From a bacterium (lineage in GTDB: Bacteria > Methylomirabilota > Methylomirabilia > CAVQYV01), in the NCBI GenBank assembly GCA_043800755.1, contig JAZDMQ010000114.1, positions 1 to 54,531 of the forward strand: 54,531 bases of DNA, written 5' to 3'. Within the stretch, counting starts at the first letter, position 1, and every line of letters starts with the position of its first letter. Shown here piece by piece: positions 1 to 8,456 of the stretch. The notes beneath the pieces were generated by a model. It did not search any database. It was not told the DNA's origin and saw only the letters and a list, made by a program, of their open reading frames with translations. A program made the translations under genes and the position numbers.

Positions 1-1
1 T

Positions 2-130
2 GAGGAAATCGGAAGGGTCTTTGGAGTGGGATATACCGCAATTACCGGAGCGGTGAAGCGAGGGCAGACCTACGTCAATTCGGATCGGCGAGTCCAGAAT
101 ACGGTCCGGAGGATATTAAATGACATATGA
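2..130 (+). mobile_element. 3' end (partial) of a probable REP-associated tyrosine (HUH/Y1, IS200-like) transposase with DnaA-C-like C-terminal HTH
   Basis: Frame 2 reads EEIGRVFGVGYTAITGAVKRGQTYVNSDRRVQNTVRRILNDI*, resembling the EIGxxFGxxxxxVxxxxxR helix pair of DnaA-C-like domains carried by some RAYT transposases. The stop is immediately followed by AGATGTGACCCC. The catalytic domain lies outside the window. Confidence 0.55.
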
Positions 131-141
131 AGATGTGACCC
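117..141. repeat. Left arm of a 25-bp imperfect inverted repeat (partner 2104-2128)
   Basis: TAAATGACATATGAAGATGTGACCC; its reverse complement GGGTCACATCTTCATATGTCATTTA matches 2104-2128 at 23/25 positions. Confidence 0.85.
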
Positions 142-230
142 CATCTCCCCTCCGGGGCGGGAATCGCACCGCCCGTGAAGACGAGGGGCCGAAACAGTCG
201 CAAGCCAACTTGATTTAGAGGAGGTTTTGC

Positions 231-1379
231 ATGCACAAGGTAAACCACATTGGAATTGGGGGCTTCCGACGGTTAAACGACGTCAATCTGGACATGCGGC
301 CTCTCATGGTGATGATCGGCGCGAACGCTGTGGGGAAGACGTCGTTGTTGGATGCTTTATCGCTTCTTTCAGCGTCGGCGGCAGGTACAATGAGCCGAAA
401 GTTGAGTGAGATGGGCGGTGTCGCCGACGTCCTGACCCGTGGACGTTCCGCGGACATTGTACTGAGAGCCGAAATGGAAGTTCCTGGGCACGAGCCGCTG
501 ACATATAATCTGCATATTGAGCCCAAGGGTCAGGAGTATAGCATTTCACATGAAGTCCTCTCGCAGGCCCATTTAGGCTATCCGGCACCTTTCAAACACA
601 TCGAATCGCGGCATACCGACATCCGCTATTTTGATATCGGAACGGGCAAACTGGTCAGGCCTGTTTGGGAACACACCCCGCTGGAATCGTCACTTTCCCA
701 GGTTCCAAAAATGTTTCGAGAGCCCGAGGAATTGCGACGAACACTCAGCTCCGTCACACAATACCACGTTTTGGATGTAGGCCCACGCGCGCCCGTAAAA
801 CTGCCCCAGCAAATGAAGCCGGCAGACCTCCCGGGCGAAAACGGCGAGGATCTGGTTTCTTTCCTCTATTCCCTTCGAGAGAGTAACCGGGACTGCTATG
901 AGGCGATTGAAGACACGTTGAAAACAGCCTTTCCCGGGTTCAGCTCCCTTAACTTTCCTCCGGTTGCCGCTGGCATGCTGTCGATGACCTGGAAAGAAAA
1001 GAGTTTTAAGAATCCACTGTACATGCATCAGCTCTCAGAAGGGACGCTCCGTTTTCTGTGGTTGATCTCGCTTCTGCAAAGCCCTGGGCTTTCGACCGTA
1101 ACCATGATCGATGAACCTGAGGTAAGCCTCCATCCCGAACTGCTAAGTATTCTCGCTGATCTCATGCGTGAGGCCTCACAAAAAACGCAAATCATCGTAG
1201 CCACCCATTCCGACAGGCTCATCCGATTCTTGGAACCCAAAGAGGTGGTCGTCATGGATATCGGCGAGGATGGCTTTACGACCGCTTATTGGGCAGATAC
1301 CCTGGATTTAGATGAATGGCTGGCGGAGTACAGCCTGGACGAAGTTTGGCGGCTGGGCCGGATGGGGGGTCGCGCATGA
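231..1379 (+). CDS. ABC/AAA_21-family ATPase
   Basis: Walker A-like GANAVGKT, signature LSEGT, Walker B TMIDEPE, H-loop ATHS; RBS GAGGAGG upstream. Confidence 0.88.
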   Translation: MHKVNHIGIGGFRRLNDVNLDMRPLMVMIGANAVGKTSLLDALSLLSASAAGTMSRKLSEMGGVADVLTRGRSADIVLRAEMEVPGHEPLTYNLHIEPKGQEYSISHEVLSQAHLGYPAPFKHIESRHTDIRYFDIGTGKLVRPVWEHTPLESSLSQVPKMFREPEELRRTLSSVTQYHVLDVGPRAPVKLPQQMKPADLPGENGEDLVSFLYSLRESNRDCYEAIEDTLKTAFPGFSSLNFPPVAAGMLSMTWKEKSFKNPLYMHQLSEGTLRFLWLISLLQSPGLSTVTMIDEPEVSLHPELLSILADLMREASQKTQIIVATHSDRLIRFLEPKEVVVMDIGEDGFTTAYWADTLDLDEWLAEYSLDEVWRLGRMGGRA

Positions 1380-1993
1380 AGATTTCCATAATTGTTGAAG
1401 GAAAAACCGAAAAGGCCTTCGTCCCGTATCTCCGGAAGTATTTGGAAAAGCACTTGTCTGGGAGAATGCCGAATCTCGACCCATTACCATACAATGGTCG
1501 TATACCCTCTGGAAACAAGCTTCAACGTGTCGTCGCCAATCTTCTGAGTCATACGCGCAATCCTGCCGATCACGTCATCGCCCTGACTGATGTCCACACG
1601 GGCACTCAACCTCCGGATTTTTCGGATGCTGCAGACGCTAAAAAGAAAATGCGCGAGTGGGTAGGGAATGAAAAGAGGTTTCATCCTCACGCAGCGCAAC
1701 ACGATTTCGAGGCTTGGCTTCTTCCCTACTGGCCGTACATTCAACGACTCGCTGGACATAATAAGGCCGCTCCCCAGGGCAACCCCGAGAGTGTTAATCA
1801 CAACAATCCGCCTTCCTACCGTATCAAGGAGGTTTTCCGTATCGGCCGGTGTCGGAATGATTACATAAAAGCCCGTGATGCTGGCCGCATTTTACGGGAC
1901 AACGATTTGTCTGTTGCTGTCTTTCTGTGTCCAGAACTGAAAGCGCTCATCAACACGATTCTTGCGGTTTGTGGAGGCGAGGGTATTCGATGA
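1376..1993 (+). CDS. DUF4276-like / TOPRIM-like protein, partner of the ATPase
   Basis: ATGA overlap with the ATPase stop. MKISIIVEGKTE (TOPRIM-type VEG), LTDVH, HDFEAWLL and NPESVN motifs. Confidence 0.75.
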   Translation: MKISIIVEGKTEKAFVPYLRKYLEKHLSGRMPNLDPLPYNGRIPSGNKLQRVVANLLSHTRNPADHVIALTDVHTGTQPPDFSDAADAKKKMREWVGNEKRFHPHAAQHDFEAWLLPYWPYIQRLAGHNKAAPQGNPESVNHNNPPSYRIKEVFRIGRCRNDYIKARDAGRILRDNDLSVAVFLCPELKALINTILAVCGGEGIR

Positions 1994-2075
1994 TTTCGGA
2001 ATCAAGGTCGCCCTTCGTTTCCTGTCCGCAGCCCGCTCAATCCGAGGTCGTCCGATGAAGTTCACTTCGTTTTTA

Positions 2076-2102
2076 AAGGCAGGAAGGCAGGAAGGCAGGA
2101 AG
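2076..2102. repeat. Short tandem repeat (AAGGCAGG)x3 abutting the right inverted-repeat arm
   Basis: AAGGCAGG AAGGCAGG AAGGCAGG AAG read directly. Confidence 0.85.
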
Positions 2103-2103
2103 A

Positions 2104-2128
2104 GGGTCACTTCTTCATTTGTCATTTA
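2104..2128. repeat. Right arm of the 25-bp imperfect inverted repeat (partner 117-141)
   Basis: GGGTCACTTCTTCATTTGTCATTTA. Confidence 0.85.
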
Positions 2129-2239
2129 GGATGGAAAACGGTGTCAGGGCATAGTTAACTAATTCCTCATGGACAGATGGCCACCCGCGAATCATGAAAA
2201 TTGGTTTGTGCGATCATTTACTACGCAAGTATTCGGCGC

Positions 2240-2272
2240 AAGAAAAGGGGTGCGATCTTCGCAACCCCTTTG
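2240..2272 (-). terminator. Intrinsic terminator-like hairpin downstream of the tRNA 3' fragment
   Basis: AAAGGGG-TGCGA / TCGCA-A-CCCCTTT stem, followed by a T-rich run on the minus strand. Confidence 0.6.
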
Positions 2273-2277
2273 ATTTT

Positions 2278-2308
2278 TGGTGGCCCCCGCGGGAATCGAA
2301 CCCGCGTT
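2278..2308 (-). pseudogene. tRNA 3' fragment (T-arm + acceptor 3' strand + CCA; tRNA-Glu-like), probable att-site or disruption scar
   Basis: Minus strand AACGCGGGTTCGATTCCCGCGGGGGCCACCA: GCGGG-TTCGATT-CCCGC T-arm, 7-nt acceptor strand, ACCA. No D-arm or anticodon arm upstream. Confidence 0.75.
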
Positions 2309-2736
2309 AATGGAAAGGGGGACACGTCCCATTTTTCTTGACAACCACCCGATGCGCCGCCAATCTCCTTCCATGTCGAGGATTGCCAGGAGAGCCATTG
2401 CAACGGATTTCCCATCAGAGAGGAAAACCGAGAGGGGGAAAAGGGGTCGAATCCTTATCCTTGAATTGGGTGGACCTCACCCCAGATTCCCGCCTCTAAT
2501 TCTCTCCTCAAACAAGTGAGCCGCATAAGCCAGCGTTCCCCATCTCAGTTTGCAGATAGACACCGTCACTACCTCTCGGAAGAACCCGGCGTTTCAGGTG
2601 ATCGGTCCTTGAGTGGGCTTTAGTACAAGCTTGGTTGATGCGAGTTCGGAAGAAGCAATTTGTGCCTTGAAATTATGGGAGCAATGTATTACTATTTGTC
2701 ATAATAGAATTCATACCCTACCGCAGGGAGGGAAAT

Positions 2737-2970
2737 ATGAGGAGTAAACAGAGGGTAACCATCGCCATTGATAAAAACATCGTGGAGGAGATCGATCGGT
2801 TATCGAAAGCACAGAGGAAGAGTAGAAGCCATATCATTGAGGGAGCCATTAAGCTCTGGAGGAAGAGACAGTTGGAAAAAGAGTTAATCGATGGCTATAT
2901 AGAAATGTGCAAAGAGAATGCAGAGACGGCGGAGGCTCAATTGGCTGCCTCCATGGAGTCCCTGCAATGA
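2737..2970 (+). CDS. Ribbon-helix-helix (CopG/NdoAI-like) antitoxin
   Basis: RVTIAIDKNIVEEIDRL..SRSHIIEGAI RHH pattern; LIDGYIEM C-terminus; overlaps the toxin gene by ATGA. Confidence 0.8.
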   Translation: MRSKQRVTIAIDKNIVEEIDRLSKAQRKSRSHIIEGAIKLWRKRQLEKELIDGYIEMCKENAETAEAQLAASMESLQ

Positions 2971-3308
2971 CCGTTTGCAGAAGGGGCGAGATCTGGATGA
3001 CGAATTTCAACCCTGGCAGGGGGAGCGAACAAAAGGGCATTCGACCATCGCTAATTCTCCAGAACGACATAGGCAATCAATACTCCTCCACCACCATTGT
3101 GGCAGTCATCACCTCGACCCTGGGAAAGTGTCCGGTGACAGTCCTGCTGGATCAAAAAACGACCGGGTTAAGGGAAAAGTCCATGGTGAATCTTGCACAG
3201 ATTCTCGCGATCGATAAAGGCAGGCTGATCAAGAAACTGGGGATCGTGGGAGCAGATAAGTTGCGAGAGGTGGATGAGGCGATCAAGATTAGCCTGGAAT
3301 TAGAATAG
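2967..3308 (+). CDS. mazF: PemK/MazF-family mRNA interferase toxin
   Basis: RRGEIW..NPGRGSEQKGIRPSLILQNDIGN, QILAIDKGRL. Confidence 0.9.
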   Translation: MTVCRRGEIWMTNFNPGRGSEQKGIRPSLILQNDIGNQYSSTTIVAVITSTLGKCPVTVLLDQKTTGLREKSMVNLAQILAIDKGRLIKKLGIVGADKLREVDEAIKISLELE

Positions 3309-3358
3309 ATCGAAAGCTTAGCCTTTGATCGCCCAATGTAATCATCAGGAGGTAATCC

Positions 3359-3868
3359 ATGGACTTCGACGAATTAATCAAAAAGAGATACAGTGTTCGT
3401 GCTTATAAGGCGGATCCGGTGGAGGAGGAGAAGCTGGAGCAGGTGCTGGAGGCGGCGCGGCTGGCGCCCACCGCGGCCAATCGGCAGCCCTTCCAATTCC
3501 TCGTGATTCACACCAAGGGCAGAGAGGCGGAGCTCCGGCGGATCTACAATCCGGACTGGTTTGTACAACCCCCCCTGGTGATCTGTGTCTGTGCAGTCTC
3601 CTCCCAGGCCTGGTCGCGGATCGACAAGAAGAACTACGCGGAGGTAGATGCCACCATCGCCATGGATCATCTCATCCTGTCCGCAGCCAACCTGGGCCTG
3701 GGGACCTGCTGGATCGCCGCCTTTGATCCGGCCGCTGCGCTTCAGGTCTTGGGGCTGCCTGATGATATTGAGCCCATTGCCTTCACGCCCTTAGGATATC
3801 CTGCCGATCAGCCGAGGGAGAAGAGACGAAAGCCATTGCTGCAGCTGGTGCGCTATGAGCGCTGGTGA
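3359..3868 (+). CDS. Nitroreductase family protein
   Basis: RYSVRAY, APTAANRQP, GLGTCWI, LGYP. Confidence 0.92.
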   Translation: MDFDELIKKRYSVRAYKADPVEEEKLEQVLEAARLAPTAANRQPFQFLVIHTKGREAELRRIYNPDWFVQPPLVICVCAVSSQAWSRIDKKNYAEVDATIAMDHLILSAANLGLGTCWIAAFDPAAALQVLGLPDDIEPIAFTPLGYPADQPREKRRKPLLQLVRYERW

Positions 3869-3964
3869 GGCCGGTATCGGCTGGTTTAGGATGCGAGTGC
3901 GGTCATGCCCGCCCTCGCATTGCTGGCCACAGATAAACCACAGCTGAAATCCAAGGAGCCCAAG

Positions 3965-4474
3965 ATGAACACCATCGAAGCCATCAAGACGCGTAGGAGC
4001 ATCCGCAAGTACACCGAGCAGTCGGTCGCCCCGGAGATTATCAAGGAACTGCTGGCCGCCGCCATGAGCGCGCCCTCTGCAGGCAATCAGCAGCCCTGGT
4101 GCTTTGTGGTCATGGATGACCGCAGCCTCCTCAATCAGGTTCCCAGCTTCAGTCCCTATGCGGGGATGTGCCGGGAGTCCCCGGTCTCTATCTTAGTGTG
4201 CGGGGATACCCGCTCCGAGAAGCATCCCGGATTCTGGATCCAGGATTGCGCCGCCGCCACCCAGAACCTCTTGCTGGCGGCCCATGAAAAGGGCCTGGGG
4301 GCCGTGTGGACGGGCGTCTATCCGAGGGAGGAGCGGGTGAAGGGCTTCCGCGAGCTGCTGCACCTGCCCGAGGGGGTCATCCCTCTGGCCTTCATCGTGA
4401 TCGGCCACCCTGCCCAGCAGCCTTCCTCCCAGGATCGATTTCAGGAGGATCGCATCCATCATAATGGATGGTAA
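3965..4474 (+). CDS. Nitroreductase family protein
   Basis: RRSIRKY, APSAGNQQPW, GLGAVWTG; ATG 3965 with AAGGAG RBS. Confidence 0.92.
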   Translation: MNTIEAIKTRRSIRKYTEQSVAPEIIKELLAAAMSAPSAGNQQPWCFVVMDDRSLLNQVPSFSPYAGMCRESPVSILVCGDTRSEKHPGFWIQDCAAATQNLLLAAHEKGLGAVWTGVYPREERVKGFRELLHLPEGVIPLAFIVIGHPAQQPSSQDRFQEDRIHHNGW

Positions 4475-4527
4475 AGCAGCGGATTTCTCGGTGAGAGGCG
4501 AGGGGGTGCGGTCACCGAGATTAAAGG

Positions 4528-4556
4528 TTGACTTTCCCCATTTTTTGGGATAGCAT
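4528..4556 (+). promoter_or_regulatory. Putative sigma70 promoter upstream of galU
   Basis: TTGACT-17 bp-TAGCAT; would give a leader of about 280 nt. Confidence 0.4.
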
Positions 4557-4844
4557 TTTTTCCTAGTTGGAGCCGAAGGACCTTTACATGGTCTGCGGTG
4601 GAAACCCCTTGCTTCCTTTTACCACTCATGGACTGAGTTAAGCCCCAATCAGGAGCCAATGGCTTCCAAATAGAGCACCTTTTTGGCGGATATGCCTACC
4701 CTCTTACTCCCCCTTGTTCCCCCTTCCCTTTTTTCTATGGCCAGGCCAGGTTGCGGGGGATAGCCCTCATCTGATAGAACTTCTGTGCTCAAGAGATCAG
4801 GACCAGCCATCATTTGGATTCCATCATTATAAAGGAGAGGCGTA

Positions 4845-5732
4845 ATGCGCGTTCGTAAGGCAGTTTTTCCTGCAGCCGGCCTGGGCACCCGATTCCTTCC
4901 GGCGACCAAGGCCCAACCGAAAGAGATGCTGCCCATCGTGGATAAGCCGATCATCCAATATGTGGTGGAGGAGGCGGTCCAATCCGGCATCCAGGATGTG
5001 ATCATCGTCACCGGGCGGGGCAAGAATGCGATCGAAGACCACTTCGATCGCTCGCTGGAGCTGGAGGGGGCCTTGATGGAAAAGGGCAGGACCGACCTGG
5101 TGGATCAAATCCAGGAGATCTCCTCCCTCATCTCCGTCTGCTACATTCGCCAAAAGGAGCCTTTGGGGCTTGGCCACGCCATCCTGGTCACCCGGAATCT
5201 GGTGGGAGATGAGCCCTTTGCCGTCTTTTTGGGGGATGATATCATCGATTCCCAGGTGCCGTGCATGGCCCAGATGATGCAGGTCTTTGAACAGTACGGG
5301 GATGCGGTTCTTGCGGTGCAGGAGGTCCCCCGGCCGGAGGTCAGGCACTATGGGGTGATCGACGGGGTCAAGGTGAGCGACCGGGTCTTCGAGATCAAGG
5401 ACATGGTGGAAAAGCCGAATCCAGAGGAGGCGCCCTCCAATCTGGCGATCATCGGCCGCTATATCCTCCCCCCCTCTATCTTTGCCCTCCTCGAAGAGAC
5501 GCCCCCTGACGCCGGGGGAGAGATCCAGCTCACCAATGCCCTGCGCGCCCTGCTGAAGCACCGCCCAGTCTATGGCTATCAGTTCGAGGGCAAGAGGTAC
5601 GATGCCGGCAACAAATTGGGATTTCTCAAGGCCACGGTGGAATTCGCCCTCAAGAGGCCGGATCTGGCGAAGGAATTTTCAGAGTACCTTAGATCTTTGA
5701 AGATCTTTGAGGCGGGGTCCGATCCCCATTGA
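4845..5732 (+). CDS. galU: UTP--glucose-1-phosphate uridylyltransferase
   Basis: KAVFPAAGLGTRFLPATKAQPKEMLPIVDKP, VEKP. Confidence 0.96.
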   Translation: MRVRKAVFPAAGLGTRFLPATKAQPKEMLPIVDKPIIQYVVEEAVQSGIQDVIIVTGRGKNAIEDHFDRSLELEGALMEKGRTDLVDQIQEISSLISVCYIRQKEPLGLGHAILVTRNLVGDEPFAVFLGDDIIDSQVPCMAQMMQVFEQYGDAVLAVQEVPRPEVRHYGVIDGVKVSDRVFEIKDMVEKPNPEEAPSNLAIIGRYILPPSIFALLEETPPDAGGEIQLTNALRALLKHRPVYGYQFEGKRYDAGNKLGFLKATVEFALKRPDLAKEFSEYLRSLKIFEAGSDPH

Positions 5733-5765
5733 GGAGTGGGGACCCGCACGAAAGGAGGTTGGAAG

Positions 5766-5969
5766 TTGGTCGGCAAGGATAAAATGGGCGAGCCGTTCGA
5801 TGGGATGTTGGATCCGCTCGTCCCGGACGATCCGGAAGTTGAAGCTGAGGGATGGGAATGGGAGGAAGAGGAGAAACACCAGAAGATCAGGAAGAAGAAA
5901 CTTCCCGAACGGGAGGAAGGAGCTTCATTCAGGAGGGGACGCGGCGGACCTTTCCGCAAGAAGAAGTAG
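5766..5969 (+). CDS. Small charged hypothetical protein
   Basis: TTG start 7 nt after AGGAGG; fills the galU-lon gap; acidic then basic low-complexity sequence. Confidence 0.45.
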   Translation: MVGKDKMGEPFDGMLDPLVPDDPEVEAEGWEWEEEEKHQKIRKKKLPEREEGASFRRGRGGPFRKKK

Positions 5970-5984
5970 GCGCCTCGAGAATGA

Positions 5985-8456
5985 GTGACTATGAGAAAGA
6001 CAAGGAACAGTAAGGCCGAAGCTGCAGACAGCCTGCGGAGCAAGGTGGACGATCTGCAGCAGAAGAAGGTCCCCAATATTATCCCCCTCTTGCCAGTGCG
6101 GGATGTGGTCATCTTTCCCTACATGATCTTGCCCTTGTTTGTGGGGAGAGAAAAGTCCATCCGTGCGGTGGAGGAGGCCCTGGCTCGAGATCGGATGATC
6201 CTGCTGGTGGCGCAGAAGGATGCGGAGGCAGAGGAGCCAAATTCCGAGGGGATCTTTTCCTTAGGGACCGTGGCCGTCATCATGCGGATCTTAAAGATGC
6301 CCGATGGGCGGAGCAAGGTGCTGGTGCAGGGGATTGGTCGGGCCCAGGTGTTGGAATTCCTGAAGACCGAGCCCTATTTCGAGGTGAGGATCTCGGAGAT
6401 CCCGGAGCCGGAGATCGAGCATCCTTCCCTGGAGGTGGAGGCCCTGCTGCGCTCGGTGAAGGAGCAGGTGGCCAAGACCAGCACCATAGGCAAGGCCCTC
6501 TCCCCCGATGTCCTGGCGATCATGAATAGCCTGGACGATCCGGGCCGGCTGGCGGATCTGGTCGCGTCCAACCTGGACCTGAAGGTGGAACAGGCCCAGG
6601 AGATCCTGGGGATTGCCGATCCATCGCTACGGCTGCGCCGGCTCTTCGATTTCCTCGGCAAGGAGCTGGAGGTCTTGAAGGTCCAGCAGCAGATCCAGAG
6701 CCAGGCGAAGGAGGAGATGGACAAGACTCATAGGGAGTACTACCTCCGCGAGCAGCTCAAGGCCATTCAGAAGGAATTAGGGGGCATGGATGAGCGGGGC
6801 CAGGAGGTTCAGGAATTCGCCGAGAAGATCGCCCAGGCGAAGATGACCCCGGATGTGGAATTGGAGGCCAAGAAGCAACTGGATCGTCTGGGCAAGATGC
6901 ACCCGGAGAGCGCCGAGGCCTCGGTGGTGCGCAACTATTTAGAGTGGCTCACCGAGCTGCCCTGGTCCCAGCAAACAAAGGATCGCCTCCATATCGGGCG
7001 GGCCTCTCGCATCTTGAACCAGGATCACTACGACCTGGAGAAGGTGAAAGAGCGGATCCTGGAATTCCTCGCGGTGCGGAAGCTGAAGAAGCGGATGAAG
7101 GGCCCCATCCTCTGCTTCGTTGGCCCCCCCGGGGTGGGAAAGACCTCCCTGGGAAGATCGATCGCACGGGCCCTGGGCAGGAAGTTCGTGCGCATCTCCC
7201 TGGGAGGGGTTCGCGACGAGGCGGAGATCCGCGGCCATCGGCGGACCTATATCGGGGCCTTCCCGGGAAAGATCATCCTGGGGATCAAGCAGGCCAAATC
7301 CAACAATCCGGTCTTCATGATCGATGAGGTGGACAAGATCGGCATGGATTTCCGCGGGGACCCGGCCGCGGCCCTGCTGGAGGTCCTGGATCCCGAGCAG
7401 AACGGGTCCTTCACCGATCATTACCTGGGCGTGCCCTTCGACCTCTCCCATGTGATGTTCATCACCACCGGCAATATCACCGATCCCATCCCCTCGGCCC
7501 TCAAGGACCGGATGGAGATCATCCATATCCCAGGGTACACCGAGGAGGAGAAGCTGGCCATCGTCCGGCGGTTCATCATTCCAAGACAGTTGAGAGAGCA
7601 CGGGATCAAGGCCCGTCATCTGACCTTTTCCGATGAGGCCCTACTGAAGATCATCACCGAACACACCCGGGAGGCGGGCCTGCGCAACCTGGAGCGGGAG
7701 ATCGCCGCGATCTGCCGCAAGGTGGCGAAGAAGGTGGCGGAGGGGGCGGGAGGACCGACCCGGCTGATCGCCTCCAATATCCATCGCTATCTCGGCGCCC
7801 CCAGGTTCCTCTCCGAGTTGGAGCAGAAGGAGGACGAGGTGGGGGTCGCCACCGGCCTCGCCTGGACCGAGGCCGGGGGGGATGTGATCTATGTGGAGAC
7901 GATCCTGATGAAGGGAAAGGGGAATTTGAGCCTCACCGGCCACCTGGGAGAGGTGATGAAGGAATCGGCCCAGGCCGCCCTCAGCTATGCGCGCGCCATG
8001 GCGGCGGAATGGGGAATCAAGGAGGAGGCCTTCGCCAAGACCGACATCCATATCCATGTCCCGGCCGGGGCAGTCCCCAAGGATGGGCCATCGGCGGGGG
8101 TCACCATGGCTACCTCCCTCATCTCCGCCCTCACCCGCCATCGGGTGAGAAGGGATGTGGCGATGACCGGCGAGGTGACCCTGCGCGGAAAGGTCTTGCC
8201 GGTGGGGGGGATCAAGGAGAAGGTGCTGGCGGCTCGCCGGGCGGGCATCCGCCGGGTAATCCTCCCCCTCAAGAACGACAAGGATATCAAGGAGATGCCG
8301 ACCCAGGTGAAGCGGGGCATGGATTTCATCCTGGTAGAGGGGATGGACCAGGTCTTGAAGGCCGCCCTGGTAGCCCATTTTCCGCTGCGCGGGGGGGGAG
8401 AGAAGGAGGATCGGGCGCTGCGATTGCCAGGGAGGTTGGAGGAGGCTCGGGCTTGA
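5985..8456 (+). CDS. lon: ATP-dependent Lon protease
   Basis: LON N-domain (PLLPVRDVVIFP), GPPGVGKT, catalytic PKDGPSAG. Confidence 0.97.
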   Translation: MTMRKTRNSKAEAADSLRSKVDDLQQKKVPNIIPLLPVRDVVIFPYMILPLFVGREKSIRAVEEALARDRMILLVAQKDAEAEEPNSEGIFSLGTVAVIMRILKMPDGRSKVLVQGIGRAQVLEFLKTEPYFEVRISEIPEPEIEHPSLEVEALLRSVKEQVAKTSTIGKALSPDVLAIMNSLDDPGRLADLVASNLDLKVEQAQEILGIADPSLRLRRLFDFLGKELEVLKVQQQIQSQAKEEMDKTHREYYLREQLKAIQKELGGMDERGQEVQEFAEKIAQAKMTPDVELEAKKQLDRLGKMHPESAEASVVRNYLEWLTELPWSQQTKDRLHIGRASRILNQDHYDLEKVKERILEFLAVRKLKKRMKGPILCFVGPPGVGKTSLGRSIARALGRKFVRISLGGVRDEAEIRGHRRTYIGAFPGKIILGIKQAKSNNPVFMIDEVDKIGMDFRGDPAAALLEVLDPEQNGSFTDHYLGVPFDLSHVMFITTGNITDPIPSALKDRMEIIHIPGYTEEEKLAIVRRFIIPRQLREHGIKARHLTFSDEALLKIITEHTREAGLRNLEREIAAICRKVAKKVAEGAGGPTRLIASNIHRYLGAPRFLSELEQKEDEVGVATGLAWTEAGGDVIYVETILMKGKGNLSLTGHLGEVMKESAQAALSYARAMAAEWGIKEEAFAKTDIHIHVPAGAVPKDGPSAGVTMATSLISALTRHRVRRDVAMTGEVTLRGKVLPVGGIKEKVLAARRAGIRRVILPLKNDKDIKEMPTQVKRGMDFILVEGMDQVLKAALVAHFPLRGGGEKEDRALRLPGRLEEARA

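Follow-up and report, generated by a model that had tools for sequence, protein, structure and literature searches.

At the start of contig JAZDMQ010000114.1, from a bacterium of the Methylomirabilota (GenBank assembly GCA_043800755.1), two genes of the HEC-01 type, a candidate defence system, stand between two 25-nt sequences in inverted orientation, the first of which overlaps the end of a transposase gene. An earlier note on this DNA had read the inverted repeat as the possible boundary of a cargo-capturing unit, in which the transposase acquires or shuffles defence genes in the manner of an integron. Analysis of this stretch (the window, 54,531 nt, which forms the start of contig C135 in the 166-contig, 2.43-Mb assembly of genome G000) led us to a different reading, to which we give a probability of roughly 0.8: the inverted repeat consists of the end repeat of a TIRtron, a unit in which a RAYT-like transposase gene (TIRYT) lies between terminal inverted repeats, together with one solo copy of that repeat, with the HEC-01 pair situated beyond the limits of the mobile unit. 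The bracket is best read as two independent copies, since the copied unit ends at the repeat tips and HEC-01 occurs elsewhere without either feature; the locus looks like a common setting for mobile elements and not like a device for gene capture. The features on which this reading draws are listed here, the tip of a repeat being its GACCC/GGGTC end.

1..130, + strand: 3′ end of a TIRYT-type Y1/HUH transposase gene, its last 42 codons and TGA (open reading frame 2..130; the remainder is on contig C134 or C10)
117..141, + strand: left arm, terminal inverted repeat on the right side of the transposase unit (motif M), its tip ...GTGACCC(C) rightward and fitting GGGGWSAS; inverted partner at C134:26728-26752 and C10:299-323
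231..1379, + strand: HEC-01A-type ABC/AAA_21 ATPase, 382 aa (Pfam AAA_21, 7.2e-35; PADLOC HEC-01A, 5.2e-68)
1376..1993, + strand: HEC-01B-type DUF4276 protein, TOPRIM-like, 205 aa (Pfam DUF4276, 3.2e-28; PADLOC HEC-01B, 2.2e-12)
2076..2102, no strand: tandem repeat (AAGGCAGG)x3.4, detected with Tandem Repeats Finder (TRF), abutting the right-arm tip
2104..2128, − strand: right arm, solo repeat copy M′, tip leftward, two mismatches to M (nhmmer E = 6.6e-05)

The transposase unit

The window opens inside a repeated unit present in at least two copies, as indicated by matches to three other contigs of the genome: positions 1-67 are identical to C134:27607-27673, at the end of C134, positions 8-141 are identical to C136:1-134, at the start of C136, and C10 begins with sequence 97.9% identical to the opposite end of the unit on C134. 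The presence of two copies of the unit in the genome explains why the contig breaks where the window starts. Joining C134 to the window through the 67-nt identical overlap gives a unit of ~ 1.02 kb between 25-nt inverted repeats with outward tips, and window positions 68-130 extend the 294-aa open frame of C134 to a protein of 314 aa, the length of complete homologues on metagenome contigs. The same 25-mer is found inverted 5′ of the gene on both C134 and C10, its GGGGTCAC tip facing away from the gene, and the matching upstream motif that the earlier note had proposed to look for is thus present.

The gene had been taken for a RAYT-like HUH transposase, an identification that stood up well. 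The 294-aa frame of C134 matched Pfam Y1_Tnp (7.4e-11, 42.7 bits, cut-off 23), the HUH histidines H60 and H62 and the tyrosine Y119 were invariant in an alignment of 12 homologues, and a profile of 12 homologues matched E. coli TnpArep (4er8, 2.5e-04) with its N-terminal part and DnaA structures (1.8e-08), including isolated domain IV (1j1v, 3.2e-06), with its C-terminal part. The NCBIfam model REP_Tyr_transpos scored 64.7, under its cut-off of 80; with the single transposase sequence as query, a phmmer search of the PDB gave no match and Pfam reported no C-terminal Bac_DnaA_C domain. The unit is a TIRtron with a RAYT-like TIRYT that carries a DnaA-domain-IV-like helix-turn-helix (HTH) at its C-terminus. 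Homologues of the transposase were found at E ≤ 1e-10 in 63 of the 151 genomes of the class, and inverted repeats of 14-39 nt that flank the gene, have tips of the GGGGTCA type and bound units of ~ 0.9-1.1 kb were present in 26 of the 29 class loci listed, a count that includes locus L028 of the unpublished genome G089 (25/28 without it; alignment A1 also includes L028). Terminal repeats with outward tips are a trait of this transposase family.

Additional TIRYT paralogues, 34-39% identical, were located in the genome at C53:114-1019, C128:9526-10143, C110:3414-4115 and C9:3146-3631, and each of the three that were checked (C53, C128 and C110) is flanked by inverted repeats of its own, of the GGGGTCA type, for which the genome also contains matching solo copies at other sites. 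In one genus (g9; loci L039, L044, L046, L049 and L052), the TIRYT unit is single-copy and has the same flanks in several species, a pattern expected for a vertically inherited copy that is possibly domesticated.

Where the copied unit ends

Contig C136 matches the window through the tip of the left arm and differs from the very next base, and the similarity of C10 and C134 ceases at the left tip. The same boundary was observed on ~ 10 metagenome contigs, whose units (66-91% identity) align tip to tip and no further, and a 98%-identical unit (L112) has flanks without any match in this genome. No visible target-site duplication was found when the flanks were compared. Across these alignments, the copied unit evidently ends at the repeat tips, and because the tips point outward and the copies end at them, the HEC-01 pair falls outside the copied unit. 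Consistent with this, HEC-01A is present once in the genome and the transposase unit twice, and no similarity was found that extends across the cargo to the outer sides of both arms, as a cargo transposon needs. The proposal of a cargo-capturing unit delimited by the inverted pair is not supported, in view of the outward tips, the ends of the C136 and metagenome units at those tips, and a low-GC stretch that continues past the right arm (described below).

The arms themselves were as first described. Positions 117-141 read TAAATGACATATGAAGATGTGACCC and positions 2104-2128 are its reverse complement with two mismatches (23/25 nt), the GACCC/GGGTC ends point inward across an inter-arm distance of 1962 nt, and the only open reading frames between the arms that match a protein family are the AAA_21 and DUF4276 genes. 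The triple duplication reported at the right arm corresponds to the (AAGGCAGG)x3.4 array lying against its tip. The left arm had been said both to overlap the last transposase codons and to start at the stop codon; the overlap was borne out and the starting point was not, as the in-frame TGA is at 128-130, inside the arm, which therefore covers the last four codons and the stop, and the TAA of positions 117-119 belongs to another frame. The tip of the unit is GGGGTCAC on C134, for which the window has GTGACCCC, and that of M′ has three G's only. M′ is of a diverged subtype, with an ACAAATG variant common to the copies on C51, C140 and C150, its similarity to the C51 copy extends to the surrounding context, and no transposase remnant was found beside it. 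By itself, the bracketing is only mildly unusual: of 20,000 simulations with 12 loci placed at random, 9.9% produced a pair less than 2 kb apart.

The HEC-01 gene pair

Both genes fit the models of the HEC-01 system in the same order, with the start of HEC-01B overlapping the stop of the ATPase gene. HEC-01B also gave weak matches, below cut-off, to RloB and OLD-like TOPRIM models. PARIS and OLD-type pairs of an ABC ATPase with a TOPRIM protein (PMC11464382) served as comparison systems, and PARIS was rejected, since the AriA model (3.3e-33) matched the ATPase less well than HEC-01A and neither AriB nor DUF4435 was found in the partner, which is a DUF4276 protein.

The question of whether the genes and the repeat belong together was addressed with 29 HEC-01A relatives from many phyla (52-76% amino-acid identity). 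The A-B pair was kept in all 28 related loci that reach beyond HEC-01A, and DNA similarity to the relatives spans only 228-1988, the coding part. No TIRYT was found within 5 kb of HEC-01A in any of the 29, and none of the 25 relatives with enough flanking sequence had a bracketing inverted repeat above the shuffled range (score 19 for the window, at most 12 for the relatives and at most 11 for shuffles). A close HEC-01A homologue was present in just one of the 150 other genomes of the class. In the reverse direction, none of 80 repeat-bearing metagenome loci, drawn from at least 132 contigs that carry an exact 21-mer of the repeat, contained HEC-01. Capture of HEC-01 between these repeats thus finds no counterpart among the relatives or at the repeat loci, and integron-like capture by the reported inverted pair is not supported.

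We regard the HEC-01 pair as a candidate defence module that is self-contained and was acquired by horizontal transfer. Defence is kept here as a candidate label because a preprint (Payne et al. 2024, 10.1101/2024.01.29.577857) reports that its HEC-01 system did not protect E. coli against the phages tested.

The repeat family in this and other genomes

The suggestion that the genome be scanned for the 25-mer proved productive, as a motif profile search recovered a dispersed repeat of 14 copies. Four of these flank the two units, two adjoin C-terminal gene remnants (C161 and C76) and the rest are solo; all 14 are intergenic, with AcrB, MobA, aldo-keto reductase, ArsR and HAD hydrolase genes among their neighbours, and the about ten solo copies lie mostly just past gene ends. 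The nearest relative in the same family, G001, has its own 15-nt repeat in nine exact copies, two flanking its TIRYT and seven solo (the control is given for ≤ 2 mismatches only, at 15 copies vs 10 for the control). In the metagenomes, units whose proteins are 55-97% identical to that of the window retain the same exact 21-nt core (L085, L095, L097, L110, L112, L118, L134, L135, L140 and L163), a conservation biased upward by the exact-match search through which the set was picked. Miniature derivatives of ~ 100-350 bp with both repeats kept and tips outward were also observed (L103, L117:1220-1356, L124, L127/L128 and L144), some with short gene remnants, and the sole tips-inward pair among the 80 loci corresponds to the stretch that separates two of these miniature units (L127/128).

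In the 14 genome copies, the 15 nt next to the tip on its outer side are pyrimidine-rich (0.83 vs 0.47 on the inner side); as a rule for the family this was rejected, as the mean was 0.51 in 49 flanks of homologous units from other genomes. Transposase genes of the Mutator family (L001:878-2245, on C134) and of the DDE_Tnp_1 type (L004:4249-5049, on C161) lie less than 2 kb from repeat copies, suggesting that such spots collect mobile DNA.

Tandem duplications at repeat tips

Short tandem duplications are common at the tips of these repeats. Of 38 repeat tips located by pattern in the genome, 14 have a TRF array no more than 45 nt outside them, compared with 3.2% expected; a share of these 38 matches probably arose by chance, as a looser pattern gave 51 vs 12 in the control. 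The duplications have periods of 7-18 and 2-4 copies, for example at C9:4539-4562, C42:17006-17029, C113:18822-18857 and C147:13494-13557, and in several cases the duplicated unit takes in the first bases of the repeat. At L091:169-255, a 31-nt unit present three times is made up of 13 nt of flank and the outer 18 nt of the repeat, and among 49 flanks from other genomes, 9 have a further GACCC no more than 32 nt beyond the tip, compared with 2 for a control word. Duplications that take in part of the repeat point to activity exactly at the tip, and their frequency there allows the (AAGGCAGG)n array of the window to be explained as a general by-product.

A mechanism that would produce the arrangement in the window can be proposed. 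The TIRYT would bind or cut its own repeats and spread REP-like solo or miniature copies, the bracket would result from independent insertions into permissive accessory DNA, and the (AAGGCAGG)n array would be a by-product of a process that makes short duplications at tips. Such a reading has value for annotation, in that it accounts for the inverted repeat, for the microsatellite and for the point at which the contig breaks, and it adds one TIRtron and its repeat family, from an uncultured sediment and groundwater lineage, beside an unvalidated candidate defence pair. To our knowledge, nobody has shown the function of TIRYTs; the tip duplications, together with the toxin-antitoxin association described next, could make their role testable.

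Toxin-antitoxin neighbours, direct arrays and alternative explanations

Several observations weigh against the reading of the bracket as two independent copies. The contig break hides which left flank, that of C134 or that of C10, joins the copy in the window; in the 20,000 random placements, a pair that includes a transposase unit arose in only 3.4%; and M′ has the same orientation as the left repeat of the unit, which makes the two direct repeats on one strand, an arrangement in principle open to an HUH enzyme that acts on single strands. The solo copies are also clustered at toxin genes. With five PIN and three PemK genes in the genome, 3 of 10 solo copies are within 200 nt of such a gene, a count equalled or exceeded in 1 of 200,000 simulations, and 4 of 10 are within 1 kb (none of 200,000), the two families having been picked after toxin-antitoxin genes were seen in metagenome arrays; the solo copies beside PIN or MazF genes are at C66:7323-7668, C140:5422-5697, C156:17231-17752 and window 2104-3308. 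On five metagenome contigs, adjacent unpaired copies are direct in 9 of 9 cases (L090-L092 on Ga0315285_10010851, L106-L108 on Ga0315280_10007895, L109, L137 and L157), with MazF, BrnT, PIN/RelB, YhcG nuclease or DUF4143 ATPase genes between them. As the solo copies cluster at toxin genes and the direct arrays hold such genes, the link of the repeat to small accessory cassettes is real, and it is unexplained.

These data are the strength of the explanation in which HUH activity drives cassette capture, with the TIRYT cutting single-stranded DNA at the repeats and excising or inserting the DNA between copies, such that HEC-01 and mazEF are shuffled as in an integron. In its favour are the toxin-gene clustering just described and the direct arrays, in which L090-092 runs repeat, MazF cassette, repeat, BrnT cassette, repeat, and L106-108 has five direct copies with PIN/RelB and small open reading frames. 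Canonical toxin-antitoxin families lie within 1.5 kb of the repeat in 14 of 69 distinct metagenome loci (the 80 loci minus 11 overlapping duplicates, with open reading frames of less than 60 aa ignored), a fraction that has no matched background, and in the window M′ is placed 111 nt past the HEC-01B stop and 609 nt ahead of mazE. At L109:1-1223, two 152-nt direct repeats (95% identical) that contain the motif have a PIN-antitoxin pair between them, and L089 has a single copy; the comparison is consistent with gain or loss of a 1071-nt PIN cassette, with the left flank of L109, which begins at the first repeat, cut off by the contig end. Most of this concerns direct repeats, and it is there that the explanation loses its hold on the window, as the pair reported there has inverted arms and inward tips, the units that were demonstrably copied all have tips outward, and HEC-01 is present once in the genome, compared with two transposase units. 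The repeated units of the arrays are 75-155 nt long and lineage-specific, and can be explained by ordinary segmental duplication or homologous recombination; none of the 80 loci shared an identical cassette in a second context; repeat orientation relative to the neighbouring genes is mixed; and the association was not reproduced with the other repeat families of G001, for which a PIN gene was present in just 1 of 16 regions, together there with a Fic/DOC-domain gene. We therefore consider capture an improbable account of the bracket. The part of the original idea that fared better is the proximity of solo copies to toxin-antitoxin genes and the existence of direct arrays, and the part that failed is the reported inverted pair as their counterpart; a looser link of the repeat family to small accessory cassettes, offered in place of that pair, we likewise rate as unlikely. 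A bolder version, in which TIRYT and the 25-nt repeat would form a single-strand HUH cassette system whose direct copies border toxin-antitoxin or defence modules (HEC-01 and mazEF) that the transposase cuts out and reinserts at other copies, is a long shot. If true, genes would be shuffled much as in an integron, with another type of enzyme at work, the tip duplications would be the scars of repeated cutting and rejoining, and cassette movement as the source of the toxin-antitoxin association would represent a new route of accessory-gene shuffling.

The repeat might otherwise be mainly a protein-binding or transcription signal, either an operator to which a domesticated TIRYT binds through its DnaA-like HTH or an element resembling a terminator, and would then be kept beside small operons because it regulates them and not because it is mobile. 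The homology of the C-terminal domain to the DNA-binding domain IV of DnaA agrees with such a role, as do the exact 21-mer kept among units with 55-97% identical proteins (in the exact-match-selected set), the single-copy unit between constant flanks in genus g9, a repeat with a PIN neighbour that is kept between C156 and L098 in flanking DNA of 76% identity, and a terminator-like hairpin with a T-rich tail that M′ forms with its flank at 2099-2116, 106 nt past the HEC-01B stop. Against it, placement of the repeat relative to genes varies, being upstream of promoters in L100 and L137 and downstream of stops in C66, C140 and L116; positions 1-3400 show no excess of terminator-like sites (3 vs a shuffle mean of 4.3); and over the 14 copies the repeat with its flank folds worse (mean − 1.0 kcal/mol) than with shuffled (− 1.4) or random (− 2.3) flanks. 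The multi-copy unit, its differing flanks and the miniature derivatives indicate mobility, and we judge a signal function slightly less probable than capture. A hairpin spanning the tip, formed by pairing of the flank with the inner portion of the repeat by analogy with the guide-target arrangement of IS608, was considered and rejected, since a small stem exists at both window arms, yet the 14 real flanks fold worse than shuffled or random ones. That the inverted repeat arose by chance and has no biological meaning could be argued only from the shortness of the arms; the mean number of arm-arm matches was 0.00 in 100 dinucleotide-preserving shuffles, the similarity of the arms is far above chance because both are members of the 14-copy family, and the exact 21-mer recurs on the 132 or more metagenome contigs, which leaves this explanation with next to no probability. 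The reading of the bracket as a TIRtron end and a solo copy is thus retained.

Comparison with known systems

In the part of PMC3733652 available, TIRYTs are described as RAYT-like genes between terminal inverted repeats that share GGGGWSAS and often overlap the 3′ end of the gene, with the TIRtron repeats sometimes forming moderately abundant families of singles, dimers and groups. The unit in the window resembles these in its RAYT-like Y1/HUH protein, its DnaA_C-like HTH, its long inverted repeats in place of REP hairpins, its GGGGWSAS tip, the 3′ overlap and the dispersed family, and differs in a repeat sequence that is new and in its uncultured lineage. Most TIRYTs are placed in TnpA_REP subclass 2.1, which has a Bac_DnaA_C/HTH-like C-terminus (Quentin et al. 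2018, PMC6006769, in part), and the DnaA-like C-terminus of the window protein fits this subclass by domain, an assignment made without a tree. The available portions of the TIRYT descriptions in PMC3733652 and PMC6006769 do not mention tip duplications, miniature derivatives or an association with toxin-antitoxin genes.

With the REPtrons, as described in the accessible text of Nunvar 2010 and Bertels & Rainey 2011, the unit has in common a homologous transposase, an inverted flanking short repeat and intergenic dispersal mostly downstream of genes. It differs from them in that the repeat has no GTAG-tagged palindrome or significant hairpin (the z-scores for folding of the arms were − 0.55 to − 2.05), occurs in 14 copies, not hundreds, and belongs to a unit that is itself multi-copy. 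The Y1 HUH transposase (Y1_Tnp), the small size and the lack of a visible target-site duplication recall IS200/IS605 elements. The ends of those elements are subterminal one-strand hairpins and are not known to include terminal inverted repeats, whereas the unit in the window is bounded by terminal inverted repeats of 25 nt and encodes an additional HTH domain. The likeness to integrons is by analogy only, through the small toxin-antitoxin cassettes between direct repeats on some metagenome contigs; cassette orientation in the arrays is mixed and the reported pair is inverted, unlike in an integron. No tyrosine-recombinase gene was found among the open reading frames of window 1-6000, where Rfam also gave no match at gathering score, and the only Rfam match near the array repeats was a signal recognition particle (SRP) RNA (L090/L091), the presence of an attC model in Rfam being unchecked. 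This match, to the bacterial small SRP RNA (40.7 bits, gathering score 40), is at L090:2372-2465 (= L091:602-695), between the first repeat and the MazF gene.

The low-GC accessory stretch

The repeats and the HEC-01 pair are contained in a larger accessory stretch, for which the following features were identified.

1..3358, no strand: low-GC accessory stretch (G+C content 0.46-0.54, compared with 0.58-0.65 from ~ 3400 and 0.582 for the genome)
2274..2308, − strand: copy of the 3′ end of tRNA-Glu(CTC), 35 nt (BLAST match to C49:4814-4845, C85 and C45)
2737..3308, + strand: mazEF-type pair, RHH/CopG antitoxin at 2737-2970 (RHH_1, 3.3e-09) and PemK/MazF toxin to 3308 (PemK_toxin, 1.4e-29; PF02452 at 2979-3296)

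Low G+C content and loss of synteny continue past the right arm to ~ 3358, and G001 matches the window only from 3359 in a tblastx comparison; the left flanks on C134 and C10 gave no match to this G001 region. The mazEF-type pair is at the edge of the stretch, just ahead of the point where synteny starts. Parts of 142-3400 were present in 23 sequencing runs (best word share 0.32), and assembly of X1-X4 gave short, low-depth contigs with no joint across the cassette. A search of 1-6000 with ARAGORN and Rfam found no RNA gene, and an integration site at a tRNA or tmRNA gene was rejected as an origin, since 1-6000 contains only the 35-nt fragment of tRNA-Glu. Copies of the tRNA-Glu(CTC) 3′ end outside the tRNA gene were also observed at C85:16277-16311, C45:653-682 and C49:4814-4845, and several in related genomes, and these fragments may be old scars of integrative elements.

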